Part shown: positions 1 to 41,903 of the stretch, piece after piece
How the letters are laid out: each line of letters starts with the position of its first letter
Position numbering within the stretch: position 1 is the stretch's first letter
Origin: Methanobacteriota archaeon
GTDB lineage: Archaea; JAADCQ01; Methanopyri; Methanopyrales; Methanopyraceae
Direction of reading: 5' to 3'
DNA length: 42,185 bases
NCBI GenBank assembly: GCA_027064425.1
Contig: JAMOPO010000029.1
Location: 1 to 42,185 of the forward strand
Position numbers and translations under genes: made by a program
The notes under the pieces: generated by a model
Told to the model about the DNA's origin: nothing
Databases searched by the model: none
What the model saw: the letters and a program-made list of their open reading frames with translations, nothing else

Positions 1-121
1 GGTAGGTTACCCACGTGTTACTGAGCCGTCCGCCGGGCCGCCCCCATAGCCGGGCGGCCCTCGACTTGCATGGCTTAGTCGGACCCCGATAGCGGTGGCC
101 TCCGGCAGGATCAACCGGAGT
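1..121 (-). rRNA. rrs: 16S rRNA, 5' end (partial, runs off window start)
   Basis: Reverse complement reads ACTCCGGTTGATCCTGCCGGAGGCCACCGCTATCGGGGTCCGACTAAGCCATGCAAGTCG...GGCTCAGTAACACGTGGGTAACCTACC, the canonical archaeal 16S 5' end. Confidence 0.98.
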
Positions 122-18300: not shown

Positions 18301-19524
18301 ATGGCCGTTCAGATCGCCCAGCTCTCCTGCGGTACCGAGTACAGCGGGGTCCAGCCCGAGATCGAGCGCGCCGCCGAGCGCGTGGGCGCCGAGATCGTCT
18401 TCCCCGAGGTGGACCTGGACCTGATCGAGGAGGCGTGCGAGGAGATCGGGTACCGACCCAAGAGCGCGAACCTCCGCGTGCTCCTGGCCCGGGCGTACGC
18501 GCTCGCGGAGGGCTACGCCGAGGCGGACGCGGTGCTCATCCTCACCTGCTTCCGGTGCGCCGAGGGCGCGCTGGTTCGCAGCGAGGCCCGGCGCTACCTC
18601 CAGGAGCGGACCGACCTGCCCGTGGTCACGTACTCCTTCACCGAGGACCTCGACGCGGGCGAGCTGCTCACCCGGCTCGAGGCGCTGGTCACCATCGTGG
18701 AGCGGAAGGGCCTCCTCGCCCGGAAGCGCCAGGAGGGGCTCACGCTCGGGATCGACTCCGGCTCGACCACGACCAAGGCGGTGGTGATGGAGGACGACGA
18801 GGTCATCGGGACCGGCTGGGTTCGCACGACCAAGGTCGTCGAGTCCGCCGAGAAGGCCGTCGAGCGGGCCCTCGAGGAGGCCGGTTACGAGCTGGACGAC
18901 ATCGAGGCGATCGGCGTGACCGGGTACGGCCGCTTCACCCTCGGCAAGCACTTCGACGCCGACCTCGTACAGGAGGAGCTCACGGTCAACTCCAAGGGTA
19001 CCGTGTACCTGGGCGGCAAGCAGGAGGGCGGGGCCACGGTCATCGACGTGGGCGGGATGGACAACAAGGCGATCACCGTCTGGGACGGCATCCCGGACAA
19101 CTTCACCATGGGCGGCGTGTGCGCGGGAGCCTCCGGCCGCTTCCTCGAGGTGGCCGCCGACCGGATCGGGGTCGACCTCGAGGAGTTCGGAGAGCTCGCC
19201 GTGAAGGGTGACCCCGAGAACGTCCGCCTCGACAGCTACTGCATCGTGTTCGGGATCCAGGACCTCGTGACGGCGCTCGCCGAGGGCGCCGACCCGGAGG
19301 ACGCCGCGGCCGCCGCCTGCTACAGCGTCGCCGAGCAGCTCTACGAGCAGCAGCTTCAAGAGATCGACATCCGAGAGCCCGTGTTCTTCGTCGGAGGCGC
19401 CTCCCTGATCAAGGGCATGGTGAGGGCGCTGGAGGACGTGATCGGCGTCGAGGTGCGCGTACCGCCCCACTCCCAGTACATCGGCGCCGTCGGCGCCGCC
19501 CTCCTGGCCTCCAACTACGTGTAA
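18301..19524 (+). CDS. mmp15: Methanogenesis marker protein 15 (ASKHA/activator-type ATPase)
   Basis: [50 protein letters not shown]. Confidence 0.92.
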
Positions 19525-19527
19525 GGG

Positions 19528-20151
19528 GTGCCGCGCGTGTACGAGCACCGCGGCAGGCGCATCCTCGTCGCCGCCAGCGAGCCCGAGGCCGCCGAGCTCT
19601 ACTACGACATAGCCCGTCACGCCATGACCGACCTCGGCCTCGCCCGCACCGTCACCGCCGCCGTCTTCCACATCGACATCCAGGCCCCCATCTTCGCCGC
19701 CGCCGTCCGCACCCGACCCACCGTCAAGCCAATCACCCTCGGCCAGGTCGCCACCCTCGAGCACGACGAGGAGGAGAACACCCTGCGCGTCACCATCCGC
19801 GTCGAGCGGCACGCCCCCCGGACCCTCACCGCCCTCCAACGCGTCTTCGGCGAGGAGCGCGTGCACCAGGAGGAGCGCTTCGAGATCGAGGTCGACCTCC
19901 CCGAGGACTTCACCGAGGAGCACCTCGAACGCCTCCAGAGCCTCGTCGTCCACGACCCGCGGGAGCGCCTCACCCAGCGCGTGCACGACCTGATCGAGCG
20001 CGTCCGACCCGAGGGGTTCCGCGTCGCCCGCTACGCCCGCGTCGCCAACGATTACCTCTACGCCGCCACCGAGGGCCGGTTCCGAGAGGAGTGGTCGGAG
20101 CTGCTCATGGAGCTCCCGGGCGAGCTCGACCGCGTCGAAGGGGGCGAGTGA
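19528..20151 (+). CDS. mmp17: Methanogenesis marker protein 17
   Basis: Position after mmp15; RVRPEGFRV motif. Confidence 0.8.
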   Translation: MPRVYEHRGRRILVAASEPEAAELYYDIARHAMTDLGLARTVTAAVFHIDIQAPIFAAAVRTRPTVKPITLGQVATLEHDEEENTLRVTIRVERHAPRTLTALQRVFGEERVHQEERFEIEVDLPEDFTEEHLERLQSLVVHDPRERLTQRVHDLIERVRPEGFRVARYARVANDYLYAATEGRFREEWSELLMELPGELDRVEGGE

Positions 20152-21000
20152 GTGAAAGTTGACCACCCGTGCTACACCGGCGAGCACGCCAAGTTCGTGA
20201 AACTCCACCTGCCGATCGGCGGGCGCTGCAACATCCACTGCCGGTTCTGCGAGTCCGGGCTCGAGCACGAGGGACAGACCGCCGACTACCCCGGCCGCAC
20301 GGTACGGACCCTATCCCCCGAGGAGGTCGAGCGCCTCCTCCGCAACGCGCGCCGAGAGTGCGGCCGGATCGACGTGGTCGGCATCGCCGGGCCCGGCGAC
20401 CCCCTCGCCAACTGGGACGAGACGCGCACCGCCCTCGAGATCGCCGCCGAGACCGCCCCCGAGGCGAAGCGGTGCCTCTCCACCAACGGCGTCTGGCTCG
20501 AGCAGTACCTGCCCGAACTGCGCCGCCTCGTCCACGCCATCACGATCACCGTGAACACCCTCGACCCCGAGACCGCCGAGCGGATCTACGACCGGGCCGT
20601 CAACGAGGACGGCGAGACCCTCACCGGCCCCGAGGCCGCACGCTGGATCGTCGAGCGCCAGGAGCGAGCCCTCGACCTCCTCTCCGAGGAGCGCTACCTC
20701 CTCAAGAAGGTCAACTTCGTCCTCATCCCGGAGGTGAACGAGGACGACGTCGAGGAGGTCGCGAAGCGCGCCGCCGACGCCGGCTTCCACGCCATGAACG
20801 TCATCCCACTCCTCCCCGGCGGAGACCTCCGAGACCACCGACCACCCACCTGCCGAGAGCTCTCCCGCGCCCGCGACCGGGCCGAGCGCTACCTCCCCGT
20901 CATGCGCCGCTGCCGACAGTGCCGGGCCGACGTGCTGCACTGCCACGGCCGACCCCGGCTCATCTGGGAGCTGCTTGAGAAGGACGAGGGGGACGACTAG
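20152..21000 (+). CDS. nifB: NifB-like radical SAM protein
   Basis: HPC, CNIHCRFC, VVGIAGPGDPLAN, CLSTNG, C-terminal CRQCRAD. Confidence 0.85.
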   Translation: MKVDHPCYTGEHAKFVKLHLPIGGRCNIHCRFCESGLEHEGQTADYPGRTVRTLSPEEVERLLRNARRECGRIDVVGIAGPGDPLANWDETRTALEIAAETAPEAKRCLSTNGVWLEQYLPELRRLVHAITITVNTLDPETAERIYDRAVNEDGETLTGPEAARWIVERQERALDLLSEERYLLKKVNFVLIPEVNEDDVEEVAKRAADAGFHAMNVIPLLPGGDLRDHRPPTCRELSRARDRAERYLPVMRRCRQCRADVLHCHGRPRLIWELLEKDEGDD

Positions 21001-21896
21001 TGTACGAGACCGTGATCTACGAGGGCGGCGTGTACAAGGCCGACGAGATGCGCGAGCTGGTCGAGGACCTCGGCGGCTTCATCCTCCAGGAGCACAAGAT
21101 GCAGCTCGAGATCCACATGATCATGGCCGTCCCGATCGAGGACCTCGACGTCGTCGAGGAGAAGGCCGAGGAGCTCCTCGGCGAGATCAAGCGCGTCCCC
21201 CTCGCCGGCACCGAGATCGCCGTCGTCGGCATGAGCCTCGCCCGGCACCACATGCCCCACCCCGTCTGCGACATCGCCGAGTACCTCCGCCGCCACGGCG
21301 CCCGCACCAACGTCATCGGCCTCGCCCGCGGCTACGGGAGAGAGCTCGCCCAGCTGAGACCCCGAGAGAAGCGCCTGCTCGAGGAGCACGACCTCGTCGT
21401 CTTCGTCGTCGGCAACTTCCGAGACTGCATCGAGAAGTACAAGCTCCCGCTCATCCGACGCATCGAGCGCGTGCCCGTGGTCGTCGTCGGCGGGCCCGAG
21501 GAGATCGACGCCGACGACGTCACCTACATCGGCGGCGTCGGCCGCAAGCCCTACCGATTCCGCAAGGGCCGCGAGATCACCAAGCTCGACGAGATCGCCG
21601 ACACCGTCTCCAGGCTCATCGAGGAGCGCCGAAAGGAGCTCGCCGAGGACCCACCCGCCGTCCCACCCATGCTCGTGAAGGACCGCCTCACCCGAGAGCT
21701 GCCCCTCCGAGACCGAGACGTCGTCCTACAGCTCGACGGCGTCCGCGTCCACCGACCCTACCGGAAGTGGAGCGACCGCCTCGCCCGCGTCGAGATCCAC
21801 GACCGAAAACTCGAAGAAGTGGCCCGAATACGGCCCTCGGAGATCCGCGGTCACACCCTGATAAAGATAAAACCGAAGAGCGAGGTCGAGGTCTAG
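21000..21896 (+). CDS. mmp7: Methanogenesis marker protein 7
   Basis: YEGGVYK, EDLGG, HHMPHP.CDIAEYLR, IGLARG, GNF..CI. Confidence 0.9.
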   Translation: MYETVIYEGGVYKADEMRELVEDLGGFILQEHKMQLEIHMIMAVPIEDLDVVEEKAEELLGEIKRVPLAGTEIAVVGMSLARHHMPHPVCDIAEYLRRHGARTNVIGLARGYGRELAQLRPREKRLLEEHDLVVFVVGNFRDCIEKYKLPLIRRIERVPVVVVGGPEEIDADDVTYIGGVGRKPYRFRKGREITKLDEIADTVSRLIEERRKELAEDPPAVPPMLVKDRLTRELPLRDRDVVLQLDGVRVHRPYRKWSDRLARVEIHDRKLEEVARIRPSEIRGHTLIKIKPKSEVEV

Positions 21897-21965
21897 GACG
21901 ACCACGACGAGCGAAGGCAACCAGGTGAAGAGAGTGAGAATGAGGGGGAGGCGGGGGGCGGGGCC

Positions 21966-23288
21966 GTGGCGGGGGACAACCAGGCCCGGACCCGCGCACC
22001 CAAGGCGGGCATACACGACCGCCGCGTCCTGGTTATTGAAGTTTTCCCCGGCCTCACCCCGCCCAGGAGCCTCCTAAGGGACCTCAACCGCGAGGAGCGA
22101 AAGCTCCTCCTCGCCGCCGCCGGCCACCCCGACCTCCACTTCTGGGCCCGAAACACCATCGCCTACCTCTTCGACCACCCCACCCCCCTCCTCCTCGCCG
22201 CCGAACGACACGAGCGCATCCTCCCCACCGCCGTCCGCACCGTCGTCGAGCACCTGACCAACGACCCCAAGCGAGCCGACAAGGCCGCCCGGCTGGTACG
22301 AAAGGGCCACACCCCCCGCGAGGCCACCACCCACGCCGCCGGCCCCGACACCGCCCGCACCACCGCCCGAATCCTCGGCCGCACCCTGGGCTACATCCAG
22401 TCGGACCCGCTGACCATCGCCCTCACCCTCCAGGTCCTGGGCGTGCTGCTCACAGCACCGCACCGACTGCGACCGCTGACCCACATCCTCGTCGTGATCC
22501 CCGAGCTCAAGCACCTGAACATCCACCCGGAGCGCCTCGCCCGCCGCGTCTACTCCACCCTCTACCGCGCCCTCCGCACCCTCGACATCCCCCGCCACCT
22601 GACCCTCCGCGTCTACCTGAAGCGCGAGGACGGCCGCCTCGAGGACCCGCGCGGCGAGCCCACGGAGACCTTCCTGGTCGAGGCCTACGAGGAGCTCTTC
22701 CACCACCGACCGCACGCCGGCGGCAAGCACTTCCCGCCCCACGACCGCACCGCGCACGTCACCGCCTGGGCCCACGCCCTCGCCCGCGCCCTCACCGACC
22801 GCGTCCGCCGAGACCTACACCGGCGCGGGCTACGCGCCGCCCAGCGCGCCAAGCAACGCGGAGAGGACCCCAACGACGCCTACCAGCGAGAGCGCAACAA
22901 GTGGCTCAAACGCTGGTTCCGCCGCGGCCGAGCCTGGCTCAAGCACCACCGACCCGCCCCAACCCTCTCCCGACTCTCCGCCCACTTCGTCCTCCGGGAG
23001 GCCGGCACCGAGCTCCTGCACACCCCCGGATTCCTGGCCCGCGTGACGCGCACCACCCTCCGAACCCTGCTTCGAGCGGGGAACCTGACCCGGATCGGCG
23101 TCCGGCAGACGGTCCGACGCGTCGCCCGGAAGCTGGTCGAGAGGTTCCAACCCACCCCGGATCAGGCCAAGCACATCCTGAAGCTCCTGCGCCGAGCACG
23201 CCGCCGAGTGCTCGGTGACAGGACGCTGCTGGAGGCCTTTGGGACCCCATCGCGGCTCGAGGCGCTGGCCCGCAGCCCGCCCGGCTGA
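21966..23288 (+). CDS. Orphan, very basic (R/H/T/L-rich) hypothetical protein
   Basis: 440-codon ORF filling the gap, with the same C-ending codon bias as neighbouring genes; no family recognised, start uncertain. Confidence 0.6.
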   Translation: MAGDNQARTRAPKAGIHDRRVLVIEVFPGLTPPRSLLRDLNREERKLLLAAAGHPDLHFWARNTIAYLFDHPTPLLLAAERHERILPTAVRTVVEHLTNDPKRADKAARLVRKGHTPREATTHAAGPDTARTTARILGRTLGYIQSDPLTIALTLQVLGVLLTAPHRLRPLTHILVVIPELKHLNIHPERLARRVYSTLYRALRTLDIPRHLTLRVYLKREDGRLEDPRGEPTETFLVEAYEELFHHRPHAGGKHFPPHDRTAHVTAWAHALARALTDRVRRDLHRRGLRAAQRAKQRGEDPNDAYQRERNKWLKRWFRRGRAWLKHHRPAPTLSRLSAHFVLREAGTELLHTPGFLARVTRTTLRTLLRAGNLTRIGVRQTVRRVARKLVERFQPTPDQAKHILKLLRRARRRVLGDRTLLEAFGTPSRLEALARSPPG

Positions 23289-23340
23289 GTTGAAACCACG
23301 GGCGCAAGCCGCGCGACCCGGGGTGGGACCGGGGCCGCAG

Positions 23341-23662
23341 ATCGTTAAGAAGTTCGAAACAATGTGACACACGCTTGTCGTGCCGTTAAGAACGCACCCA
23401 GGGCGCTCAGAAAAGTGTTTTTCCTGAAGCTAACGAGACCACAAAACACAACCCTAAGCGCTGCCTTCATCGCGCTAATACCCGGCTAACCAAATAGATA
23501 ACCAAATAACCTGGTATTTGGACCAATATCTAACTTGAACCGAGCTTAAGTGATGACAGGCTGAAGCCGGTTGTCAGCCTTGATTCATGCGTTCTTTAAC
23601 CCGGGCGCGTCCCCCGGCGGGGCTGTGATCGGTTGGTTCCGGTTCGCTCGACCGTTGTTTCG
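23341..23662. other. AT-rich symmetric intergenic region; candidate replication origin
   Basis: Longest AT-enriched noncoding stretch in the window, with nested inverted repeats, sitting at a C-rich to G-rich strand switch. Confidence 0.55.
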
Positions 23663-23734
23663 GGATCGCGCGGCGGCTGGGTGAAGCTTCTTATCCCGCG
23701 GTCCGGTGGGGGAGACGGCCGGGGCGGGTTCGCC

Positions 23735-24607
23735 GTGCGGGTGGCCGCGTTCGCGGCGGAGTTTTACTCGCGGCTGCCGGAGGGCGTGTTCCGTGAGTTC
23801 GTGCGGGAGCCGGAGCGGCGGGAGTGGGCGTTCACGGTGGAGCGGGGTGGCGACCTGGTCTTCGTGCGGAAGCGTCGGTGGGACGAGGTGGAGGGGTTCG
23901 TGGAGCTGTACCACTCGGTGGGTCGGTTCGAGGAGCCGACGAGGTGGGAGGGGTTGACGGGCTGGGATTTGGTGCTGGACGTGGACGCGGAGCTGCCGGA
24001 GGATGCGGAGGGGTTCTTGCGGGAGCTGGGGGAGCTGTTGAGGGGTGTGGTTCGGGTGTGTGAGGAGCTGCGTCGGGTGGTGGGTCTGCCGGCGCCGGAC
24101 GTGATCAACTTCTCGGGGTCGAAGGGGTTTCATGTGCGGTACTTCTTTGAGTCGATTAGGAACAGGTTGAGGTGGGGGGAGCACTTGGGGAGGGGGTTGG
24201 ACGTGGAGGAGCTGGTTAGGGGGTTGGGTCGTGGGTTGGTCTGGTTGGCGGAGGAGGGGTTCATTGGTGGTGGGGTGGGTGAGCTGTTGGATGAGTCGAT
24301 GTACGAGTTGAAGCGGTTGATTCGGTGTGTGGGTTCTTTGAACGCTAAGTCGTTGTTGCCGGCGGTGCCGGTGTGGTGTAAGTGGGAGGGTTCGTGGCGG
24401 GAGTTCAGGGAGAGGGTGTTGGATGGGAGTGGGTTGGAGGTGGGTTGTTGGGTGGTTCGGAGGGTGTTGACGTGGCCGGGTGGTGGGTTGGTGGAGGTGT
24501 TGGATCGGGTGCTGGGGTTGGAGGTGGATGTCGGTGTGCGGGGGTTGGAGGAGTTCGTGGGTGTGTGGGAGGAGGTTCAGGAGGCGTTGGGGGAGATGAA
24601 GGGGTGA
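23735..24607 (+). CDS. priS: DNA primase small subunit
   Basis: REWAF, Y.S...E.P, WDLVLDVDA, FSGSKGFHV, RLIR..GSLN.KS.L. Confidence 0.9.
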   Translation: MRVAAFAAEFYSRLPEGVFREFVREPERREWAFTVERGGDLVFVRKRRWDEVEGFVELYHSVGRFEEPTRWEGLTGWDLVLDVDAELPEDAEGFLRELGELLRGVVRVCEELRRVVGLPAPDVINFSGSKGFHVRYFFESIRNRLRWGEHLGRGLDVEELVRGLGRGLVWLAEEGFIGGGVGELLDESMYELKRLIRCVGSLNAKSLLPAVPVWCKWEGSWREFRERVLDGSGLEVGCWVVRRVLTWPGGGLVEVLDRVLGLEVDVGVRGLEEFVGVWEEVQEALGEMKG

Positions 24608-25179
24608 GGTTCGTGGTCCCGTTCGCGGATCGGGGTGAGCGGAAGACGCGGTTGTCTTCGTGCATGGATGAGCGGACGCGGGAGGAGTTCGCGCTGGCGA
24701 TGTTGCGGCACGTGGTGCGGGTGCTCTCGGGGTTCGGTGAGGTGGAGGTGGTGACGCCGGACGAGGAGTTGTCGGTGCCGGGGGCGTCGGTGCGGTGCAG
24801 TGAGGCGGGGTTGAACGAGCTGCCGCTGCCGGTGGGGGAGCGGTTCGGGGTGGTGGTGTCGGATCTGCCGTTGCTGTCGGAGGAGGATGTGGAGCGGGCG
24901 TTGGAGGCGTTGGAGGGGGCGGACGTGGTGCTGTGTCCGGCGCGGCGAGGTGGTACGTCGGGGGTGTTCGTGCGGGAGGGGGTGCGGTTCCGGCCGGTGT
25001 TCGGTGGGGTGAGCTTTCCGAGGAACTTGGAGCGGGCTCGTGGGCGTGGGTTGGAGGTGCGGGTGGTGCGGTCGTTGGGGTTCTTTGCGGACGTGGACGT
25101 GCCGGAGGATCTAGTGGACGTGGCGCTCTTGGGTGAGGGTGAGGTGGCGCGGTTGGCGCGGTCGGTTGTGTCCGTGTGA
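24604..25179 (+). CDS. cofC: 2-phospho-L-lactate/PEP guanylyltransferase (F420 synthesis)
   Basis: VPF....KTRLS, AML..V, SDLPLL, P.R.GGT, DVDVPEDL. Confidence 0.92.
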   Translation: MRFVVPFADRGERKTRLSSCMDERTREEFALAMLRHVVRVLSGFGEVEVVTPDEELSVPGASVRCSEAGLNELPLPVGERFGVVVSDLPLLSEEDVERALEALEGADVVLCPARRGGTSGVFVREGVRFRPVFGGVSFPRNLERARGRGLEVRVVRSLGFFADVDVPEDLVDVALLGEGEVARLARSVVSV

Positions 25180-25238
25180 GTTCGACGCTCGGGGTGGGGG
25201 GCTCGGCTGAAAGGTCGGGTGTCGGGTCGGCGTAGGGG

Positions 25239-26327
25239 GTGTGGGTCTTGGTCTCTCGGGAGGAGGTTTGGGAGGTGTTGGAGGAGTACGATGTGGAGGA
25301 TCTGTCGATCGCGACGCTGGGGAGTCACACGGCGCTGCACATCCTGCGGGGGGCGAAGGAGGAGGGGTTCCGGTCGGTGGTGGTGTGTGAGGAGGGTCGG
25401 ACGGCGCCGTACGAGCGGTTGGGTGTGGCGGACGAGATCATCGTGGTGGAGTCGTTCGAGGAGGTGGTGGATGAGGAGGTGCAGGAGCGGCTGCGGGAGT
25501 TGAACGCGATCGTGGTGCCGCACGGGTCGTTCGTGGCGTACGTGGGCGTGGATCGGATCGAGGAGGAGCTGTACGTGCCGATCTTCGGGAATCGGTGGCT
25601 GCTGCGGTGGGAGAGCGAGCGGGAGCTGGAGCGGGAGCTGTTGGAGCGGGCCGGGGTGAAGGTGCCGAGGGTGTTCGAGTCGCCGGAGGAGATCGATCGG
25701 CCGGTGATCGTGAAGTTCCCGGGGGCGCGGGGTGGTCGTGGCTACTTCATCTGTTCGAGTCCGGAGGAGTTCGAGGAGAAGGTGGAGAAGATGATCGAGC
25801 GGGGGTACCTGGACGAGGAGGACGTGGAGCGGGCGCACATTGAGGAGTACGTGGTGGGGACGAACTTCTGCGTGCACTACTTCCGGTCGGTCGTGGAGGA
25901 CACGGTGGAGGTTCTGGGGATGGATCGGCGGTACGAGACGAACATTGATGGGCTGGTGCGGATGCCGGCGCGGGATCAGCTGGAGGTGGATCTGGAGCCC
26001 TCGTTCGTGATCTCTGGGAACGTGCCGGTGGTGGTGCGGGAGTCGCTGCTGGTGCAGCTGTACGAGATGGGTGACCGGGTGGTGGAGGCGTCGGAGGAGA
26101 TTCGGGAGCCGGGGTTGATCGGGCCGTTCTGCCTGCAGACGCTGTGCACGGAGGACCTGGAGTTCTACGTGTTCGAGCTGTCGGCGCGGATCGACGGTGG
26201 TACGAACGTCACGTTCCTGCCGTACGCGTTCCTGAAGTTCGGTGAGGTGTTCACGATGGGGCGGCGGATCGCGCGGGAGATTCGGGAGGCGCGGGAGCGC
26301 GGTGTGCTGCGGGAGGTGGTCACGTAG
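25239..26327 (+). CDS. purP: AICAR formyltransferase PurP (ATP-grasp)
   Basis: IATLGSHTAL.I..GAK.EGF, PHGSFVAY, FGNR, GGRGYF, FELSARIDGGTN, MGRRIARE. Confidence 0.93.
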   Translation: MWVLVSREEVWEVLEEYDVEDLSIATLGSHTALHILRGAKEEGFRSVVVCEEGRTAPYERLGVADEIIVVESFEEVVDEEVQERLRELNAIVVPHGSFVAYVGVDRIEEELYVPIFGNRWLLRWESERELERELLERAGVKVPRVFESPEEIDRPVIVKFPGARGGRGYFICSSPEEFEEKVEKMIERGYLDEEDVERAHIEEYVVGTNFCVHYFRSVVEDTVEVLGMDRRYETNIDGLVRMPARDQLEVDLEPSFVISGNVPVVVRESLLVQLYEMGDRVVEASEEIREPGLIGPFCLQTLCTEDLEFYVFELSARIDGGTNVTFLPYAFLKFGEVFTMGRRIAREIREARERGVLREVVT

Positions 26328-26330
26328 GGG

Positions 26331-27626
26331 GTGCCGCTCGCCCTGCTCCTTCTGGTCTCCGGGCACGATCCTACGGGGGCGGGTTTGAGGGCGGACGTGG
26401 CGACGGCGGAGGCGCTGGGCGTGCCGCACGTCTCGGTGGTCACGCTGCTCTCGGTGCAGGTGGGGGGCGTGGAGGAGGTTCGTCCGGTGGATCGTGACCT
26501 GTTCCGGCGGTGCCTGGAGGAGTACGTGGAGTGGTGCGAGGTGGCGAAGGTGGGGGCGGTGCCGCGGGAGTGGATGTTCGGGGAGCTGGCGGAGCGGCTG
26601 GAGGGGCTGCGGGTGGTCTGGGACCCGGTCTTCGAGGCGGAGAAGGGTGGCGCGCTGTCGGAGGTGGACCCGGGCCGGGCGCTGGAGGTGTTCGGTGAGG
26701 CGGTGGACGTGGTCACGCCGAACGCGCGGGAGTTGGGGGAGTGGGTGGGTCGTCGGGTGAGGTCGGTGTCGGAGGCGGAGGTGGCGGCGCGGGAGCTGTT
26801 GGAGTCGTTCGACTGGGAGGGGGTCCTGGTCACGGGCGGGCACCTGGTGGACCGGTGCGACGTGTGGGTGCCGGCGGAGGGTGAGGCGGTCGCGTGGGAG
26901 CTGCCGGAGGGGGAGGGGGCGCACGGGTCGGGGTGCGTGGTCTCGGCGGCGTTGGCGTGCTACCTGTGCCGTGGGGTGGGGCTGGAGGAGGCGGTGGAGC
27001 GGGCGGTGAGGTTCGCTCGGCGGGCGGTGAGGGGCGCGTTCGAGCTGCCGGTGGGTCGGGTGGTCTCGCCGGGCGCCTGGGTGCGTGAGCGGGCGGCGTT
27101 CGGTCGGGCGGTGCGGAACGTGCTGCGGGCGTTGAGGATGCTGGAGTCGGACCCGGTCTTCGCCCGGGCGGTCCCGCAGGTGGGGATGAACGTGGCGGAG
27201 GTGTTCGATCCGGAGCGGGGGTTGGAGGGGGTGGTGGGGCTCTCGGGTCGGGTGATCTTGGAGGGTGATCGGGTCCGGGTGGTGGGTCGGCCGGTCCCGG
27301 GTGGCTCGAAGCACGTGGGGACGGTGGCGCTGACGGCGCACCGGTTGGATCCGTCGGTGCGGGCGGCGGTGAACGCTCGGTTCGAGGAGGAGCTGGTGGA
27401 GCGGGCGCGGGAGTTGGGGCTTGTGGTGGCGAGTTTTGATCGGTCGGAGGAGCCGGAGGAGGTGGAGTCGACGATGGAGTGGGGGACGCGGGTGGCGTTC
27501 GAGCGGGCGGGTGAGACCCCGGACGTGATTTGGGATGAGGGGGACGTGGGGAAGGAGCCGATGATCCGGGTGCTGGGTGGCAGTGCGGTGGAGGCGGTGT
27601 CGAAGCTGCGGATGCTGCTGGGGTAG
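26331..27626 (+). CDS. thiD: Bifunctional HMP(-P) kinase / thiamine-phosphate synthase ThiDN
   Basis: GHDPTGAGL.AD, DPV, TPNA.E, HGSGC; C-terminal PQVGMN, GSKHV, D.GD.GKEPMI. Confidence 0.92.
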   Translation: MPLALLLLVSGHDPTGAGLRADVATAEALGVPHVSVVTLLSVQVGGVEEVRPVDRDLFRRCLEEYVEWCEVAKVGAVPREWMFGELAERLEGLRVVWDPVFEAEKGGALSEVDPGRALEVFGEAVDVVTPNARELGEWVGRRVRSVSEAEVAARELLESFDWEGVLVTGGHLVDRCDVWVPAEGEAVAWELPEGEGAHGSGCVVSAALACYLCRGVGLEEAVERAVRFARRAVRGAFELPVGRVVSPGAWVRERAAFGRAVRNVLRALRMLESDPVFARAVPQVGMNVAEVFDPERGLEGVVGLSGRVILEGDRVRVVGRPVPGGSKHVGTVALTAHRLDPSVRAAVNARFEEELVERARELGLVVASFDRSEEPEEVESTMEWGTRVAFERAGETPDVIWDEGDVGKEPMIRVLGGSAVEAVSKLRMLLG

Positions 27627-27632
27627 TGCGGC

Positions 27633-28238
27633 ATGTTCGAGCGGCTGGTGTACGTGGACCTGATCTCAAGGAGTCACGCGGAGTTCGCGAAGCGCGCGAT
27701 CCGGAGGCTGTCTCCGCGGGTGGAGGTGGAGGTTAGGTGCCTCTCTCGGTTCGAGCGGGAGGATGAGGCGCTCACGTACGATGGTCGGCTGCGGGACGAG
27801 TCGGCGTGGGAGCGGTTCCTGGAGGTGCTGGAGGAGGCGGAGGAGGACTGGGTGGTCGCGTCGGTGGTGAACGTGCCGCCGGAGGTGCGGGAGGTGGACT
27901 CGGACGCGACGGTGGTGTTGGGGGTGAACACGGGGGATCATCGGAGGACGCTGGAGGCGGCGCGGTTGGCGGACGTGTTGGTGGTGGGTCGTCGGCTGTA
28001 CTCGCCGTCGACGGGGCCTCGGGAGTTCGGTCGGGTGGGTTCCGGGGTGCTGAAGGACGGGACGCTGGTGGTGGACGTGGAGGATCTGGACCTGATGTAC
28101 GCGAGCGAGGGGGTCCCGGTGGTCGCGGTCGTGGTGGCGGAGCGCGGGGTGGAGGGGCTGCGGATGGATCTGCGGGCGGGTCGGTTGAAGCCGCTGGCGG
28201 AGGAGGCGCTGGAGGGGCTCTCGCTCTCGCGGGTGTGA
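27633..28238 (+). CDS. Hypothetical protein
   Basis: ATG-start ORF closely packed in the operon, typical acidic composition. Confidence 0.75.
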   Translation: MFERLVYVDLISRSHAEFAKRAIRRLSPRVEVEVRCLSRFEREDEALTYDGRLRDESAWERFLEVLEEAEEDWVVASVVNVPPEVREVDSDATVVLGVNTGDHRRTLEAARLADVLVVGRRLYSPSTGPREFGRVGSGVLKDGTLVVDVEDLDLMYASEGVPVVAVVVAERGVEGLRMDLRAGRLKPLAEEALEGLSLSRV

Positions 28239-28244
28239 GCGGTC

Positions 28245-29147
28245 GTGGAGGAGTTCCGGTGGCGGCCTGAAGGGTTCGAGTGCGTGCTCTCGCACTTCGA
28301 GGCGGAGCGGCTGCTGGAGGCGGTTGAGTCGGGGGAGGACCGGGTTCGGGTCCCGCTGGATCTGGGTCGGGAGGAGGGCTCGGTCTCGGTGGAGGGAGAT
28401 GGGGTTCGGGTGCGCGGGGTGTGGGTGTCTCGGGAGGAGCTGGAGCGGATGGTGGAGTGGGAGGGGGCGTACGGGCTCTCGAAGGAGGGCGTCTTCCGGC
28501 TGGAGATTCGGGCGGAGCATTACTACAAGCTGCTGCCCGTGAGGCCGGGCGAGGCGCCGACGGTGGAGATCGATGGGATTCGGATGCATCGGACGAAGTG
28601 GACGGACCCGTGGACGGACGCGGGCGTGAAGGTGCGGTACGCGCGGGTGGGTGCGGGGGATCGGGTGCTGGACGTGTGCACGGGGTTGGGCTACACGGCG
28701 ATCCGGGCGGTGGAGCGCGGGGCTGAGGTGGTCTCGGTGGAGAAGGATCTGAACGTGCTCCGGCTCAGCCGGGCTAACCCGTGGTCGGAGGGGTTGCGGG
28801 AGGTTCGGGTGTTGGTTGGGCGGGCGGAGGAGGTGGTGCCGGAGTTTGGGCGCTGCGAGTTCGACGCGGTGGTGCACGATCCGCCCCGGATGGCGCGGGC
28901 GGGTGAGCTGTACTCGCGGGAGTTTTACCGGGAGCTGCTCCGGGTGATGGCGCCGGGCGCGCGGCTGGTGCACTACGTGGGGGCGCCGGGGAGCCGGTAT
29001 CGGGGTAAAGACATAATCAGGGGCGTGGCGAGGCGGCTCGCGGAGGTGGGGTTCGAGGTGGTGCGGGTGGACCGGAAGTGGGGGCTCGTCATCGCTGAGA
29101 GACCCAGCGGCGGAGGGCGGGCTCGGGGACGAAGATCCCGCCCTTGA
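28245..29147 (+). CDS. Archaeal SAM-dependent methyltransferase (COG2521-like)
   Basis: PTVEIDGIRMH, VLDVCTGLGYTA, NPWS, HDPPR...GELYS. Confidence 0.9.
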   Translation: MEEFRWRPEGFECVLSHFEAERLLEAVESGEDRVRVPLDLGREEGSVSVEGDGVRVRGVWVSREELERMVEWEGAYGLSKEGVFRLEIRAEHYYKLLPVRPGEAPTVEIDGIRMHRTKWTDPWTDAGVKVRYARVGAGDRVLDVCTGLGYTAIRAVERGAEVVSVEKDLNVLRLSRANPWSEGLREVRVLVGRAEEVVPEFGRCEFDAVVHDPPRMARAGELYSREFYRELLRVMAPGARLVHYVGAPGSRYRGKDIIRGVARRLAEVGFEVVRVDRKWGLVIAERPSGGGRARGRRSRP

Positions 29148-29553
29148 GCTCGGCGACGGCGGCGGAGGTCTCTCGGAGGCCGGCGTGGAAGAGGTGGGAC
29201 TCGCAGTCGCAGTCGGAGCAGCCGAACCCGGGGACGCCGGGAGCGCGGCGGGAGAGGGACCTCGCCAGCTCGCACTCGGCGTCGTAGGGCAGGAGCCAGG
29301 CGCCCTTGATCCTCGGTCTCGTGGCGTCGAGCAGGTGGTCGATGTGCCAGTGTGGGTTCTCGGCGCCGCGCTCGGCGGTGCTGAGGTGCCGGCGCAGTCG
29401 GCCGCGCAGGTCGGTGGAGCCCCTCCCCTGGCCCGAGCCGACGTACGTCCAGTCCCCGGGCTCGAACTCCAGGGTCCCGAGGCTCCCGATCCGGACCCGG
29501 TGGCGCTCGTCCAGGTGGAAGATGAGCGCGTACGTCCCGGTGGAGGGTAGCAA
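29089..29553 (-). CDS. DUF123 GIY-YIG (Uri) nuclease-like protein
   Basis: GTY.L, IGSLG, YVGSG, R..RH, HWHID.L, GFGCSDC.C.SHL; TTG start chosen. Confidence 0.85.
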   Translation of the reverse strand: MLPSTGTYALIFHLDERHRVRIGSLGTLEFEPGDWTYVGSGQGRGSTDLRGRLRRHLSTAERGAENPHWHIDHLLDATRPRIKGAWLLPYDAECELARSLSRRAPGVPGFGCSDCDCESHLFHAGLRETSAAVAELKGGIFVPEPALRRWVSQR

Positions 29554-29566
29554 GGGGGGAGGCCCC

Positions 29567-31921
29567 CTGAGGAGGGCCGCGCTGGTTGGAGCGGTCATCG
29601 TGCTGGGGGCGGTCGCGGCGAACGCGGCGAACCTGAGTCATCCGCTGCTGAGCCGGGACTCGAGGGCTCACGTGCTCAAGATCTGGTACACGCGCGAGAT
29701 GCTCGCTCACGGCAGGTGGGACGCGTGGTGTCCGGAGTGGTACTCGGGCTTCCCGTACCTGACGTACTACGGCTCGCTGGGGTACCTGATCGGGGCGTGC
29801 GTGGACGCGGTGGTTGGCAGCCCGGTCCTCTCGTTCCTGGTCTGCCTGATCCTGGCCTCCGCTCTGGTGGGGTGGGGCGTCTACTGGGTGGTGCGGGCCC
29901 GCGGGTTTGAGCGCTGGGTCGCGGTGATCTGCGCGCTGTTGGCGCTCACCTCGGGCGGGCTGATGAAGGCCCTGAACTGGGAGGGCGTGTACCCCACGGT
30001 GCTGGCCCTGGGCTTCGGGATGCTCGCGCTGGGTACCTACGAGCGGTGGCTGCGCGGCGGGGATCGGCGCCGGCTGGCGCTCAGCACCGCGCTCCTGGTT
30101 CCGGCCTTCTACACGCACCCGCTGGGCGGGCTGCTCTCGGGCGGGTTGGTCCTCACGCGCGGGATCTTTGAGGTGGTGATGGACGCGTCCCGGCGCGAGC
30201 TGCGGTTCCTGGCGCTCTCGGTGGCGCCGGTCGTGATCGCGGGGTTGATCGCGCTCCCGCACTACGCGGCGGCGTTCTACTACAAGCGGTTCCTCTCGGA
30301 GCTTTGGCTGTACCCGCCCGGCTCGGTCGCGGGCTTGATCAAGGACCTGGCGGTGGGCGGGAAGTGGTCGCCCGGGCTGCTGGTGACCGTGCTGGGGCTG
30401 TCCGGGGTGATCCTGGGCCTGCGCCGCCGGGATCCGATCGCGCCGTTCACGCTGTTCTGGCTCGCCGTCTCGATCCTGGTGTGTTTCGCGTACGTGCTCG
30501 GGTACTGGTCGAAGATCCCGCTGGGTAGGAACATGCTGGCGGAGCGGTACACGACGGTCCTGCTGCCGCTGCTGCTGTCGGTCGCGGCCGCCCCGGTCGT
30601 GCGCTCGCTCGTCCGGACCCGGTGGGCGGTGGTGGGCGCCGGCGCGTTCCTGATCGGGCTGGGCGGCGTGGGGGCGCTCACTTACACCCCGCCGCTGCCG
30701 CCCAAGCTGTACCCGAGCGCGCTGGAGACGTGGCGGTGGGTGGGGGGCGAGTGGGGCGGTCGCTCGGCCCTGGAGCGCTGCGACGCGGACCCGTACACGC
30801 ACCTGTTCGACGCGTCGGTCCCGATCTCACCGATGTACTCGGGTCATCCCACGATCATGGGCTGGTTCTCGCAGGGTGACCCGATGTTCTTCTCCCTGGC
30901 GGCCCGGTGGGAGTGGGAGCTGGGCTGGGTGTACGATCCGAACTTCGTGAAGACGTCGCTCTGGGCGACGAACACCCGGTTCCTGGTCACGAAGTCGAGG
31001 CTGGTGGCGAAGCGGCTGATGCGCGAGCCGGACTTCGTCTACCGGGCGAAGTTCGGCCGGTTCCGGGTGTTCGAGTACCCGGGGCACGGTGGTCCCGCGG
31101 CGGTCGTCCCGCACCCGATCGGCGTGGTGGACCCGTGGCTGGGGTTGAGGACGGAGAACGCGTACTACACTACCCTGCTGAACTTCGTCGCGACGCCGGG
31201 CCGACGGTACGTGTTCGCGGACGTGACCTGGAAGGGGGCGCCGGCGTTCGACCGGCTGATCGTGCGGCCGAAGCGGGCGGAGGACGTGCGGAGGGCGGTG
31301 GAGCTGGCCCGGTCGGGTCGGAGGGTGCTGCTGATTCTCCCGGAGCGGTGCCCGAGGCCGGTGCTCGAGGCGGTGGAGCGGTCGCTCGGGGTGGACTTGG
31401 AGCGCTCTCGCCCGCCGTCGTTCGTGCCCTCGAGGCGGTTCTTGGTGGCGGTGTACCGGGTGGACGGGAGGTGGTTCAAGGACGTGCGCGCGGGCAGGGG
31501 GAAGGTGCGGGTCTGCGGGGTGGACCTGGTCCGGTTCGCGATGCGGTTCCACCGGCTGATCAAGGAGGTCCAGACGAAGGGGTACCGGATGCCGAGGCTG
31601 CCGACGGACCGGGAGCGGAGGTTCGTGAACGCGGTGCTGAAGGGGTTCGATTCGGGCGAGCCGAGGCCGGCGTGGGCTGCGTTCGTGGGCGGCCCGGAGC
31701 GGCTGAGGGTGCGGGGCTCGGGGTGGGTGTTCGTCAAGGTGAAGTACTTCCCGGCGTGGCGGTCGGGCTCGGGCCCGGTGCTGCCGGCCTCGTGCGGTCA
31801 GATGCTGGTCAAGGTGCCGGGGGAGGGGGAGCTCAGGTACGAGCTGCCGGCGGTGGTCTCGGTGTACCCGTACGCGGCGGCGGTGGTCGGCATCGTGGCG
31901 CTGGGGGCGCTGGCGCTGTGA
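29567..31921 (+). CDS. Large polytopic membrane protein (PTPS-related/GT-C glycosyltransferase-like)
   Basis: D...H, W...WYSGFP...YY motif, about ten TM helices, large soluble domain and C-terminal anchor; start uncertain. Confidence 0.75.
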   Translation: MRRAALVGAVIVLGAVAANAANLSHPLLSRDSRAHVLKIWYTREMLAHGRWDAWCPEWYSGFPYLTYYGSLGYLIGACVDAVVGSPVLSFLVCLILASALVGWGVYWVVRARGFERWVAVICALLALTSGGLMKALNWEGVYPTVLALGFGMLALGTYERWLRGGDRRRLALSTALLVPAFYTHPLGGLLSGGLVLTRGIFEVVMDASRRELRFLALSVAPVVIAGLIALPHYAAAFYYKRFLSELWLYPPGSVAGLIKDLAVGGKWSPGLLVTVLGLSGVILGLRRRDPIAPFTLFWLAVSILVCFAYVLGYWSKIPLGRNMLAERYTTVLLPLLLSVAAAPVVRSLVRTRWAVVGAGAFLIGLGGVGALTYTPPLPPKLYPSALETWRWVGGEWGGRSALERCDADPYTHLFDASVPISPMYSGHPTIMGWFSQGDPMFFSLAARWEWELGWVYDPNFVKTSLWATNTRFLVTKSRLVAKRLMREPDFVYRAKFGRFRVFEYPGHGGPAAVVPHPIGVVDPWLGLRTENAYYTTLLNFVATPGRRYVFADVTWKGAPAFDRLIVRPKRAEDVRRAVELARSGRRVLLILPERCPRPVLEAVERSLGVDLERSRPPSFVPSRRFLVAVYRVDGRWFKDVRAGRGKVRVCGVDLVRFAMRFHRLIKEVQTKGYRMPRLPTDRERRFVNAVLKGFDSGEPRPAWAAFVGGPERLRVRGSGWVFVKVKYFPAWRSGSGPVLPASCGQMLVKVPGEGELRYELPAVVSVYPYAAAVVGIVALGALAL

Positions 31922-32403
31922 GGGTGGTCAGGGTCGTCCTGGCGGTGTTAGCGGGGCTGTACGGGGTGGGCTGGGCGTCGACGGTGGTGAACTGGAGCGT
32001 GCCGCACGAGATCGTGCGGTCGAGCCCGGGGGTTTACCAGTCGACGGGTGCCACGGTGCAGGCGACGATCAACCCGTACCGGGGGAAGATCACGCTCTCG
32101 GTGGCGTACGATCCGGCGGTGATCGTGAAGCTGCCGTACCGGGGTAAGGCGGAGCGGGTCTCGGCGTCGGAGCTGCGGTTAGGCTCGGTCCGGGTGCGGG
32201 CGCTGGGGGACGCGCTGGAGATTCGGGGGCCGTGCTCGGTGCGCCCGTACGTGACGACGAGGACGGGCGAGGTGTACACCGTGGAGCTGGCGCGGCTGGG
32301 GGGTGGGTTCGTGGGGCTGAACCGGAGCGGGTACCTGGTGATCGTCACCCGGAGCGGTGCGGTCACGACGGTGCGGGTGCTGCCGCTCATTCCGTTGATC
32401 TAG
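31918..32403 (+). CDS. Hypothetical exported protein
   Basis: GTG start overlaps the upstream stop; signal-peptide-like N-terminus, beta-rich body. Confidence 0.65.
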   Translation: MRVVRVVLAVLAGLYGVGWASTVVNWSVPHEIVRSSPGVYQSTGATVQATINPYRGKITLSVAYDPAVIVKLPYRGKAERVSASELRLGSVRVRALGDALEIRGPCSVRPYVTTRTGEVYTVELARLGGGFVGLNRSGYLVIVTRSGAVTTVRVLPLIPLI

Positions 32404-32415
32404 GGGCGCGGGATC

Positions 32416-33426
32416 GTGCCTAGGCTGCCCTACGTGGCGGTGCCGAAGCGGGAGGCGGAGCGGGCGCGTCGGGCGCTGGCGCGGGAGTCGCTGCTGGTGC
32501 GGGACGTGAGGGTGCGGCGGGAGGGGGATCGGGTCCTCTTCCCGGTGGAGGACGCGGAGGAGGCGGCGCGGGTGCTGGAGCGGGAGGAGGTCCCGTTCGA
32601 GCTGGGTGAGGGCGAGTTCGAGTCGGTCTCGGGCCCGAGGAGCGTGGAGGAGGTGCTGAGGGAGCGGCTGGGCGTGTCCTGCTCGGTCCCGTACGATGTG
32701 GTGGGCGACGTGGCGGTGGTGCAGATCCCGGAGGAGCTGGAGGGGTACGAGGAGGAGGTCGGCCGGGCGATCATGGAGGTGCACAAGCGGGTGCGGGCGG
32801 TCTTCGAGCGGGGTCCGGTGCGCGGCGTCTTCCGGGTCCGGGAGCTGCGGAGGATCGCGGGTGAGGGGCCGCCGGTGACGGAGCACCGAGAGCACGGGTG
32901 CCGGTTCCGGGTGGATCTGTCCCGGTGCTACTTCAACCCGAGGCTGGCGACGGAGCGGCGCCTGCTGGCGGACGAGGTGGTGGAGGAGGGGGCCCGGGTG
33001 CTGGACATGTTCGCGGGCGTGGGCCCGATCACGGTGATCCTGAAGCGGTTCGTGCCGGGCGTGCGGGTGGTGGCGTGCGAGCTGAACCCGGTCGCGTACC
33101 GGTACCTGCTGGAGAACCTGAGGCTGAACCGGGTGTCGGCGCGGGCCTTCCTGGGCGATGCGGGGGAGGTGGTGCGGCTGCTCGGGCGGTTCGACTACGT
33201 GATCATGAACGCGCCGAAGTTCGCGCACCGGTTCCTGCGGGCGGCGGCGCGGGTCGTGCGGCCGGGCGGGCGGGTCGTGTACTACCGGATCGCGGGGTCG
33301 GTGGAGGAGGCGTTCGAGGAGGTGCGGGAGCGGCTGGGGGGCGGGGTGGAGCTGGAGTCGTGGCGGGAGGTGAAGCCGTACTCGCCGGAGGAGTCGCTGT
33401 TCCGGCTGGTGGTGCGGGTGCCTTAG
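32416..33426 (+). CDS. trm5: Trm5/Tyw2-family tRNA methyltransferase
   Basis: YDVVGDVA, G.FR.R, HREHG, YFNPRL..ER, DMFAGVGP, ELNP.A. Confidence 0.85.
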   Translation: MPRLPYVAVPKREAERARRALARESLLVRDVRVRREGDRVLFPVEDAEEAARVLEREEVPFELGEGEFESVSGPRSVEEVLRERLGVSCSVPYDVVGDVAVVQIPEELEGYEEEVGRAIMEVHKRVRAVFERGPVRGVFRVRELRRIAGEGPPVTEHREHGCRFRVDLSRCYFNPRLATERRLLADEVVEEGARVLDMFAGVGPITVILKRFVPGVRVVACELNPVAYRYLLENLRLNRVSARAFLGDAGEVVRLLGRFDYVIMNAPKFAHRFLRAAARVVRPGGRVVYYRIAGSVEEAFEEVRERLGGGVELESWREVKPYSPEESLFRLVVRVP

Positions 33427-33893
33427 CCCAGGCGCTTGCGGAGCTCGTGAAGGAGGATGGCGACGGCGCCGATCTCGCCGATGTTACCCTCGGTGGCGAT
33501 GTACACGGCCCGGTCGCCGAGCTCCAGCTCGCGCTTGCTGAGGCCGGGTCGGGCGCTGCCGAAGACGAACCAGACGTCCTTGCCCTGCTCGATGAGCTCG
33601 GCGACCTCGTCGAAGTCGAGGGGCTCGGCGCCGCCGTGCTCCCTGTCCTCGGCCATGAAGGTCACGTCGGGCTCGAGCGCCTCGAGGGCCTCCTCCAGGT
33701 CCTGGAAGAAGTGGAGCTCGGTGTCGCGCTCGAGGCAGAGGCGCTGGGCAGCGGGGACGCCCTCCTGGGCGGCGCTGCCGAGGGCGCGGGTGATAACGAG
33801 TCGTCGGGCGCCGAGGCCGGTCACGGTGCGGGCCATCTCCTCGACCTTTCGCGGGCTGTGCACGTTATGGTAAACCACGGTCACAGGAATCAC
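33423..33893 (-). CDS. SPOUT-family RNA methyltransferase-like protein (COG4080-like)
   Basis: HNV.S, GSAAQ.GVP, DL.EA.E.L.PD, FG....GLS..EL..G. Confidence 0.75.
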   Translation of the reverse strand: MIPVTVVYHNVHSPRKVEEMARTVTGLGARRLVITRALGSAAQEGVPAAQRLCLERDTELHFFQDLEEALEALEPDVTFMAEDREHGGAEPLDFDEVAELIEQGKDVWFVFGSARPGLSKRELELGDRAVYIATEGNIGEIGAVAILLHELRKRLG

Positions 33894-33945
33894 ACGGAAA
33901 CCCCCTTAGCCTGGGCGCTCAGCCCCGCTATGGGGGGCTTGGGCC

Positions 33946-34908: not shown

Positions 34909-34918
34909 GGGGTGCGCG

Positions 34919-37300: not shown

Positions 37301-37390
37301 GCGGGGGCGCCCGAGCCTGGTCGAAGGGGCGGGACTTAAGATCCCGTGGCCGTAGGGCCGTCCCGGGTTCAAATCCCGGCCCCCGCACCA
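37301..37390 (+). tRNA. tRNA-Leu(UAA), encoded CCA, C at position 8
   Basis: Acceptor GCGGGGG/CCCCCGC, anticodon arm CGGGA-CT-TAA-GA-TCCCG, long variable arm, T loop TTCAAAT, discriminator A, then CCA. Confidence 0.97.
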
Positions 37391-41812: not shown

Positions 41813-41903
41813 GCCGGGGCGGCCGAGCCCGGTCCAAGGCGCGGGACTTGAGATCCCGTGGCCCGTATGGGCCGCCCGGGTTCAAATCCCGGCCCCGGCG
41901 CCA
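41813..41903 (+). tRNA. tRNA-Ser(UGA), encoded CCA, C at position 8
   Basis: Acceptor GCCGGGG/CCCCGGC, anticodon arm CGGGA-CT-TGA-GA-TCCCG, long variable arm, discriminator G, then CCA. Confidence 0.97.

Follow-up and report, generated by a model that had tools for sequence, protein, structure and literature searches.

The stretch of DNA analysed here (the window) is a 42,185-nucleotide contig of an archaeon of the Methanopyraceae (JAMOPO010000029.1 of assembly GCA_027064425.1). This study concerns one of its genes, here named X, which encodes an orphan basic protein, and the spacer of low GC content that separates X from a primase-like gene. An earlier note on this DNA had proposed X as a candidate non-canonical replication initiator or origin-binding protein. 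The locus was compared with the rest of the window's own genome (G000, 1.54 Mb, 68% GC), the complete Methanopyrus kandleri genome (G002, 1.69 Mb), a further complete genome (G001), and two metagenome loci, L016 and L017, the latter from a more distant relative. The following features were found at the locus.

21966..23288, plus strand: gene X, orphan basic protein of 440 amino acids, GTG start.
23289..23734, no strand: spacer between X and the primase gene, with the strand-composition switch inside it.
23289..23339, no strand: GC-rich stretch right after the X stop codon, with an imperfect inverted repeat.
23340..23365, no strand: conserved block GATCGTTAAGA..TTCGAAACAAT, which alignment places after X in five of five lineages including L017.
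23487..23521, no strand: repeat array, TAACCAAATA twice at a distance of 12 bp followed by inverted TATTTGG; candidate X site.
23633..24607, plus strand: divergent PriS-like primase catalytic subunit, with the conserved protein beginning at about 23735.

The product of X contains 15.7% Arg, 5.9% His, and no Cys, with 84 Lys and Arg residues against 42 Asp and Glu residues; the computed isoelectric point (pI) is 11.60 and the net charge +42. The pI values for the eight genes flanking X range from 4.35 to 6.40, and the earlier description of a 440-residue Arg/His-rich orphan amid acidic proteins was thus correct. Seven of the eight family members have net charges of +30 to +44 (+7 in the remaining one), and Arg contents of 13-16% with pI values of 10.5-11.7 were likewise obtained for seven of the eight, the pI of P0008 being 9.15. 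Because the Arg richness and the pI are kept across the family, the basic charge is considered to be intrinsic. In the orthologues from unskewed genomes, His accounts for 2.1-2.7%, Thr for 3.0-4.6%, and Val for 10-11% of the residues, and in the members from skewed lineages the respective values are 5.9-8.6%, 8.6-10.1%, and 3.6-5.5%. The His/Thr/Pro excess has no counterpart in the orthologues from unskewed genomes, and the composition of X therefore partly follows the local C skew, as the earlier note had remarked; the excess itself is mutational drift. The GC skew at third codon positions (GC3 skew) of X, -0.43, is also the value of its left-hand neighbours.

Long basic C-rich open reading frames (ORFs) in G000 are mostly shadows of genes on the opposite strand, and X is compositionally like them. 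X as the shadow of an antisense gene was nevertheless rejected, the antisense ORFs at the locus belonging to no family and being short in G002. The X frame is open at full length in G001 and G002, with 47% identity over about 420 residues in the alignment, and the antisense ORFs are short in both genomes; X is therefore a real gene. The copy in L016 is about 77% identical and the homologue in L017 is 33-36% identical, and the M. kandleri orthologue is deposited as "hypothetical protein [Methanopyrus kandleri]" (AAM01800.1 / WP_011018955.1). The ratio of nonsynonymous to synonymous substitution rates (dN/dS) of X was 0.33 against L016 and 0.31 against G002, indicating that its function is maintained under purifying selection. 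Conservation among Methanopyrus-type relatives, to which the earlier note had pointed as a check, was thus borne out with full-length open homologues in four further lineages, and X is a genuine gene under purifying selection. X was also the fastest evolving of the eight genes of the neighbourhood (78% / 48% identity versus 81-96% / 58-92% for the others), followed by the PriS-like gene.

The family is confined to a narrow group. A word-indexed search of 5.8 billion clusters returned seven proteins matching X, which were Methanopyrus hypothetical proteins besides the window's own protein and one nameless metagenome protein. When 1.84 billion representatives were searched exhaustively with a profile, three of them matched, namely two members of the X family and the distant P0008, and nothing beyond the family was retrieved. 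Among 31 genomes (the window's own, five congeneric ones, and 25 from other genera), X matched in G000, G001, and G002, as a single copy in each, a fourth match (E 0.1) being noise; X is thus found in three of the six species genomes of the genus. A search for related loci in the genome contigs gave no confirmed locus, near relatives possibly falling outside that search.

Between the last base of the X stop codon (23288) and the first base of the low-GC block (23340) there are 51 bp, in agreement with the earlier statement that X ends about 50 bp before the AT-rich region. The low-GC core (23340-23600) has 46% GC compared with 69% for the window. In the GC-rich stretch upstream of it, a repeat search found that the arms of the inverted repeat (23251-23268 and 23296-23313) are 72% complementary. 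Neither an Rfam family nor a tRNA was found in the spacer; a sigma-70 promoter scan, whose model is irrelevant to archaea, gave nothing, and terminator-like sites numbered 2 versus 1.4 expected.

The distinctive element of the spacer is the repeat array. The heptamer CCAAATA occurs at 23490(+), 23502(+), and 23515(-), and these three are the sole copies in the window, where 0.29 would be expected and none of 100 shuffles reached three. There are 14 copies in the whole of G000, and the X spacer holds the only cluster. At the corresponding position in L016, CTAGATA occurs at 11534(+), 11546(+), and 11573(-), and in L017, GGAAATA occurs at 11423(+), 11435(+), 11446(-), and 11457(-), with spacings of 12, 11, and 11 bp. 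The G002 array consists of CAGATAA, CCAAATAA 12 bp further, and inverted TTATTTGG; the degenerate motif [CT]A[AG]ATAA, chosen post hoc from data already seen, has 134 sites in G002 and occurs at least three times within 60 bp only at the X spacer. An equivalent array is also present in G001. The architecture, a low-GC spacer after X that holds two direct plus one or two inverted heptamers with a spacing of about 12 bp, is therefore common to five of five lineages, and the cluster is genome-unique in both G000 and G002. The heptamer differs among lineages, the direct and inverted copies changing together, and it co-diverges with the X protein.

The GATCGTTA/CGTAACGA block that follows the X stop codon was rejected as a locus-specific element. 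CGTAACGA occurs 73 times in G000, often in palindromic pairs, versus about 27 expected from base composition by our own estimate; since a core of the CGTTACG type is common genome-wide, the conserved block after the stop codon is not diagnostic of the locus. As a separate observation, the palindrome TCGTTACG-N5-CGTAACGA is found at 659-679 of the window and at no fewer than six further loci of G000 (e.g. C15:42918, C15:180206, C15:384096, C3:119378, C48:893, and C52:29365), and could be where a global regulator binds.

Beyond the spacer lies the divergent PriS-like gene, the sole PriS-like match in G000. The family model NF001641 matched it with an E value of 4.9e-6, far under the cut-off, and Pfam PF01896 was silent. 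The motifs DVD, SGSKGFH, and D..KRLIRCVGS.N, which we take to be the archaeo-eukaryotic primase catalytic motifs I-III, are invariant in four of four orthologues. The earlier placement of priS across the AT-rich region is accordingly upheld by the motifs, although the family models match weakly. The orthologues begin at residue 35 (about 23735), and the TTG start at 23633 is therefore probably too far upstream.

The order McrC-like gene, X, priS, cofC, and DUF1246/DUF1297 gene is conserved in the window, L016, and G002, and the array lies between X and priS in these three and in G001; a DUF1678 gene is inserted ahead of X in G002 and G001. The arrangement in L017 is different. At L017:7636-11176, a full MCM gene (742 amino acids, all MCM domains) is followed after a 14-bp gap by the X homologue, and then by a lower-GC spacer bearing the GGAAATA array; no priS was found on the 14.9 kb of this contig. 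The L017 MCM has 53-55% identity with the main MCMs of G000 and G002, the identity between these two being 74%, and the LysE gene of L017 shows 71% identity in one tblastx segment. The reverse situation was observed in another genome of the genus, G004. Its priS (55% identity) has an ATG that overlaps the stop codon of an unrelated upstream ORF of 411 amino acids (ATGA; locus L113, G004:C52:12287-16102, overlap at 2316-2330). X and the spacer are missing there, indicating that the neighbourhood of priS was rearranged in that species. Since the array accompanies X in L017, with no priS on the 14.9 kb, and priS occurs without the array in G004, it is to X, rather than to priS, that the array belongs. 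The best-supported conclusion from these sequence comparisons is that X and the array constitute a co-inherited and co-diverging protein-site pair beside core replication genes.

The adjacency of X to either priS or MCM could also mean that X is an accessory partner of the primase or of MCM and that the repeats are unrelated to it. In addition to the adjacency, no other gene of the block evolves as fast as X and PriS do, which would fit co-evolution of the two. However, a canonical PriL is encoded elsewhere (C15:211400-211843, PF04104, E 1.2e-32), so that X is not PriL, a candidate identity that was rejected, and no conserved Cys was found across the X family. The partner explanation also gives no reason why X and the array should be so strictly linked, and G004 has priS without X. 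We regard such a partner role as very unlikely.

In G000, the spacer of X coincides with a switch in strand composition. When every G000 contig 10 kb or longer was scanned with 4-kb arms (12,849 positions), the largest step in GC skew was located at C29:23600, that is, in the X spacer, where the skew changes from -0.163 to +0.449. This step of 0.611 corresponds to 5.7 standard deviations (standard deviation 0.107). The AT skew flips in the opposite direction to the GC skew, and the polarity is origin-like. The GC3 skew of the four left-hand genes is -0.39 to -0.44, that of the four right-hand genes is +0.54 to +0.71, and both sides thus lie beyond the 5-95% range of -0.29 to +0.28 given by 590 acidic ORFs of at least 200 amino acids. 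All eight genes flanking the spacer are on the plus strand, and therefore the direction of transcription cannot explain the flip. The same flip was observed at the X spacer of L016.

Extreme asymmetry at synonymous sites was also noted as blocks, at 19500-35000 of the window, G000 C15:342000-350000, and C26:1-5300. In the window, the GC3 skew is -0.4 before and +0.7 after 23.4-23.7 kb, and near 35 kb it falls back (-0.352 at C29:35000); further steps are found at C15:350000 (-0.272) and at C26:5300, where a G-rich block ends (-0.398). The spacer at C15:345650-345790, beside another switch that is considered below, is GC-rich and has four copies of GATGAGG in about 130 bp, unlike the X array. 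The orthologues of the genes in these blocks have no such bias in G002 and G001. Several origins, local exposure of single strands at high temperature, or some other cause are possibilities for the blocks.

The array may instead be an operator. According to this alternative, X is a transcription factor or a local chromatin protein that controls its own or the downstream gene through the array, with no role in initiation. Closely spaced palindromic repeats between genes are what an operator typically looks like, priS is preceded by the array in four lineages (about 60-100 bp before the ATG in G002 and 112-215 bp here), and X is basic and helical. The lack of a skew switch in G002 and G001, and the existence of genomes that seem to do without X, also fit a regulator. 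On the other hand, the array stays with X in L017 with no priS following, the priS of G004 does without an array, and the distance from the array to the start of priS is not conserved. Furthermore, the array is downstream of X and hence off the promoter of X itself, and regulation would leave both the recurrent adjacency to replication genes and the extreme skew step unexplained. A purely regulatory X is possible, but we consider it doubtful.

DUF1678 (PF07913), which is encoded at 39037-39594(+) of the window, is a multicopy family restricted to Methanopyrus, for which there are 10 matches in G000, 2 in G001, and 19 in G002. Copies in G000 are at C15:344750, C47, C32, C48, C57, and others, and several of them lie close to the end of a contig or on a short one, as a mobile repeat would. 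In L017 a copy follows X at a distance of 2 kb, and another copy adjoins the second skew switch. A relationship of X with DUF1678 was rejected on an hhalign probability of 0.07.

These surroundings bear on the idea that X and the spacer are a fixed relic of the replication or partition module of an integrated plasmid or virus, which would now be neutral or serve the element. The patchy occurrence of X within the genus, its rank as the fastest-evolving gene of the neighbourhood, its lack of relatives outside the group, the multicopy DUF1678 near X in G002, G001, and L017, and the high divergence of priS itself are all in line with such a relic. Against it, X is single-copy per genome, and its place in the gene order, after the McrC-like gene and before priS, is conserved in G000, L016, and G002. 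X has the GC3 skew of its neighbours and is therefore not compositionally foreign, and a dN/dS of about 0.3 indicates a maintained function. A PHROG scan of nine members gave a single match (E 0.063, one of nine), and a Foldseek search of the X model against the viral structures of BFVD gave none at E<=0.001. Neither an integrase nor att-like flanks were noticed, no systematic search having been aimed at them. Taken together, a relic of this kind is distinctly unlikely. X was also rejected as a Tn3-family transposase; the match to NF033527 (17.8 bits versus a cut-off of 500, in one of nine members) was noise.

X belongs to no family in Pfam, NCBIfam, or PHROGs, and none of the nine members scanned matched an AAA family of Pfam or NCBIfam. 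The Walker A pattern [AG]xxxxGK[ST] was absent from seven of the eight members, the lone match (residue 394 of P0004) being unconserved; the HUH pattern occurred in none of the eight, no Rep family matched, and CxxC was not seen in the X protein of the window. The pattern and family searches thus confirmed the earlier claim that X has no Walker A and no recognisable motif. A profile search of PDB sequences gave nothing under E 0.47, and the ESM Atlas gave nothing usable (template-modelling score <=0.29, with a poor Atlas model).

A full-length AlphaFold2 model of X was obtained from eight sequences, with a predicted local distance difference test score (pLDDT) of 73.4 and a predicted template-modelling score of 0.71. 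The model has strands at 13-17, 21-25, 173-179, and 213-219, with a helical insertion at 35-163, a long helix pair at 261-327, and then a C-terminal helical bundle; X is thus predicted to be mostly alpha-helical with a four-stranded sheet in its N-terminal part. The N-terminal domain modelled alone gave a pLDDT of 73.2 and only four strands, and a P-loop sandwich is not seen in the models. When the whole and N-terminal models were searched with Foldseek against PDB, no match was found at E<=0.001, and VIA-align against 48,161 chains gave none at Z>=8, the stated noise level of that method being Z 7-8. As to an unrelated enzyme fold, which would have spoken against the earlier proposal, these two models at a pLDDT of about 73 consequently gave no match above noise.

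Below the noise level, the top VIA-align match of the whole model was an Archaeoglobus Argonaute (Z 5.9, root-mean-square deviation 4.1, 128 aligned residues), and Argonaute or Piwi accounted for 5 of the 50 best rows (X residues 17-263, Z 4.7-5.9). For the N-terminal domain alone, the best match had Z 4.8, a root-mean-square deviation of 3.2, and 120 aligned residues, and Argonaute or Piwi accounted for 7 of 50 rows (Z 3.7-4.8), all again sub-noise. The models may therewith contain a faint RNase H-like topology, and X could be an unrelated enzyme or RNA-binding protein, for example one with a degenerate RNase H-like or PIWI-like nuclease domain. The recurrence of these weak matches and the invariant residues of the family (D70, D147, E234, E239, H82, and H328) agree with a nuclease, whereas every Z value lies under the noise level, Foldseek returned nothing, and only four strands are predicted. 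The RNase H-like fold is characterised by a mixed sheet of five strands and a conserved acidic triad or tetrad. In addition, no invariant acidic residue is present on the first strands of the model, and the one beside strand 1 varies. A nuclease-like or RNA-binding identity is scarcely probable.

The Orc1/Cdc6 models TIGR02928 and PF09079 gave no match reaching the cut-off anywhere in G000 and none at the X locus. The top P-loop matches in G000 were rejected as a hidden Orc1/Cdc6, being assigned by Pfam to TIP49, an intein-bearing RFC, PAN, a PRS2-like AAA ATPase, and a ParA/NUBPL-type NTPase; further P-loop ORFs were rejected by eye only as PhoH-, HypB-, FtsY-, and kinase-like. At C15:412085-415000 of G000 (L007), the TIP49/RuvBL-type ATPase (PF06068, E 1e-132) adjoins an intein-containing RFC-like subunit. 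In passages of three papers, no recognisable Orc1/Cdc6 is reported for Methanopyrales (PMC3914693, PMC2643942, PMC3984812); one of these passages proposes that Orc1/Cdc6 was replaced by a non-orthologous protein in this order (PMC3914693), and another describes its replication origin as not recognised (PMC3984812). An excerpt on class I methanogens lists a fast-evolving Orc1/Cdc6 arCOG (PMC4390880). The earlier remark that an Orc1/Cdc6 is not readily recognisable in Methanopyrus therefore holds for G000 with the two models used, and is at odds with one excerpt stating that divergent orc genes exist (PMC5333045). A literature search with the accessions of the X orthologue returned unrelated papers only, and none of the literature matches listed paired Methanopyrus kandleri with oriC or Z-curve.

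Other features of the window are the 5' end of a 16S rRNA gene at its edge (1-121(-)) and genes for tRNA-Leu(TAA) and tRNA-Ser(TGA) at 37301-37390(+) and 41813-41903(+), respectively.

Based on the above, we tentatively propose that X, a protein specific to this lineage, binds DNA at a site of its own, and that an origin-of-replication module is its most likely function, with a rough probability of 35%; the regulator and the mobile-element relic are the chief rivals. That two different core replication genes adjoin the module, priS here and MCM in L017, supports this proposal. It is also supported by the joint occurrence of X and the array, the change of the heptamer along with the protein, the uniqueness of the array, the skew step in G000 and L016, the positive charge of X, and the lack of an Orc1/Cdc6 match above cut-off in G000. 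We infer that X binds DNA, that the array is its site, that the spacer fires as an origin, and that X contacts MCM or the primase. In such a mechanism, the target of X would be the heptamer repeats of the AT-rich spacer that directly follows its gene, to which it would probably bind as a dimer or oligomer. The low-GC DNA next to the repeats would thereby be marked or destabilised, and X would help to bring MCM and/or the primase to this DNA in a group with no recognisable ordinary Orc1/Cdc6. A more specific version, in which X is the origin-recognition protein of Methanopyrales, with a new fold, that replaces Orc1/Cdc6 non-homologously, binds iterons spaced by 12 bp, and recruits both MCM and the primase, the spacer of the window being a chromosomal origin, is unlikely in our estimation.

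Several observations weigh against an origin module. The cumulative skew of the complete G002 genome is noisy, with no V-shape and no usable origin signal, and the step at its orthologous spacer is an unremarkable 0.12; no skew switch was found at the orthologous locus of the complete G001 genome either. Even in the window, the strong skew extends for only about 5-11 kb to either side, having died away by about 19 kb to the left and by 29-35 kb to the right, unlike a replichore-wide signal. At C15:345600, G000 has a second switch (0.478) with this polarity, beside DUF1678 and with no copy of X. The repeat search found no long repeats resembling the origin recognition box (ORB). X was not found in G003, G004, and G005 with either the protein or the family profile, these genomes being 87-94% complete in 50-260 contigs, and the priS locus of G004 has neither X, the spacer, nor the array. 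The fastest evolution in the neighbourhood would be unusual for an essential initiator. As for the fold, neither AAA+, Rep, nor a clear winged-helix fold was seen in the X models; helices 339-396 form a bundle with generic matches at Z 4.7-5.3, including an ORC1 segment, and no wing strands are predicted there within the full-length model. Finally, an excerpt of one paper states that Methanococcales and Methanopyrales carry highly divergent orc genes (PMC5333045). The earlier proposal of a non-canonical initiator or origin-binding protein therefore stands in part: X is real, basic, linked to the array, near priS or MCM, and in G000 at a skew switch, but the switch is missing from G002 and G001 and the presence of X is patchy.

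Replication initiation in Methanopyrales and Methanococcales is described as an open problem in passages of three papers (PMC3914693, PMC2643942, PMC3984812). The analysis turns an orphan ORF into a concrete and testable pair, namely one protein and one 35-bp genome-unique repeat array. If X binds the array and the spacer fires, X would represent a new class of cellular initiator, and if X is the origin-recognition protein, the first origin and initiator would have been identified for the Methanopyrales group. Otherwise, the pair would be a clean example of a private protein and site co-diverging in a hyperthermophile, and the strong local strand asymmetry around X would still need an explanation if there is no origin.

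Among known systems, the locus resembles the archaeal Orc1/Cdc6-oriC arrangement in that the X gene is immediately next to an AT-rich spacer whose short repeats run in both orientations, replication genes lie close by, the spacer of G000 has a switch of origin polarity, and the protein has a similar length of about 400-440 amino acids. In contrast to Orc1/Cdc6, X lacks an AAA+ domain and a Walker A motif and shows no recognisable winged helix, and no sequence or fold relation between them was detected. ORB elements are roughly 22-35 bp long, whereas the X repeats are 7-10 bp at a spacing of 12 bp.

In iteron plasmids, the Rep gene stands beside its own iterons, the repeats diverge with the protein, and the protein evolves fast. 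X is similar in that its gene lies beside private, closely spaced repeats that co-diverge with it, and in that it is fast-evolving. It differs in that the module is chromosomal, single-copy, and syntenic with only 3-4 repeats, and in that X has no similarity to the Rep, HUH, or winged-helix Rep families.

WhiP is a distant homologue of Cdt1 with winged-helix domains, and X differs from it in having no Cdt1 or winged-helix relation in the general searches, no direct comparison with WhiP having been made. Excerpts on WhiP at oriC3 of Sulfolobus islandicus nevertheless provide a precedent for an origin specified by an initiator other than Orc1/Cdc6 (PMC5333045, PMC3607249). Archaeal origin-binding nucleoid-associated proteins are, according to a passage of one paper, a small class of non-initiators that bind a motif inside origins (PMC12141716). 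Unlike these proteins, X has 440 amino acids, is restricted to one lineage, and is encoded beside its candidate site; by analogy, X could nonetheless act as an accessory origin-binding protein of the nucleoid-associated kind.

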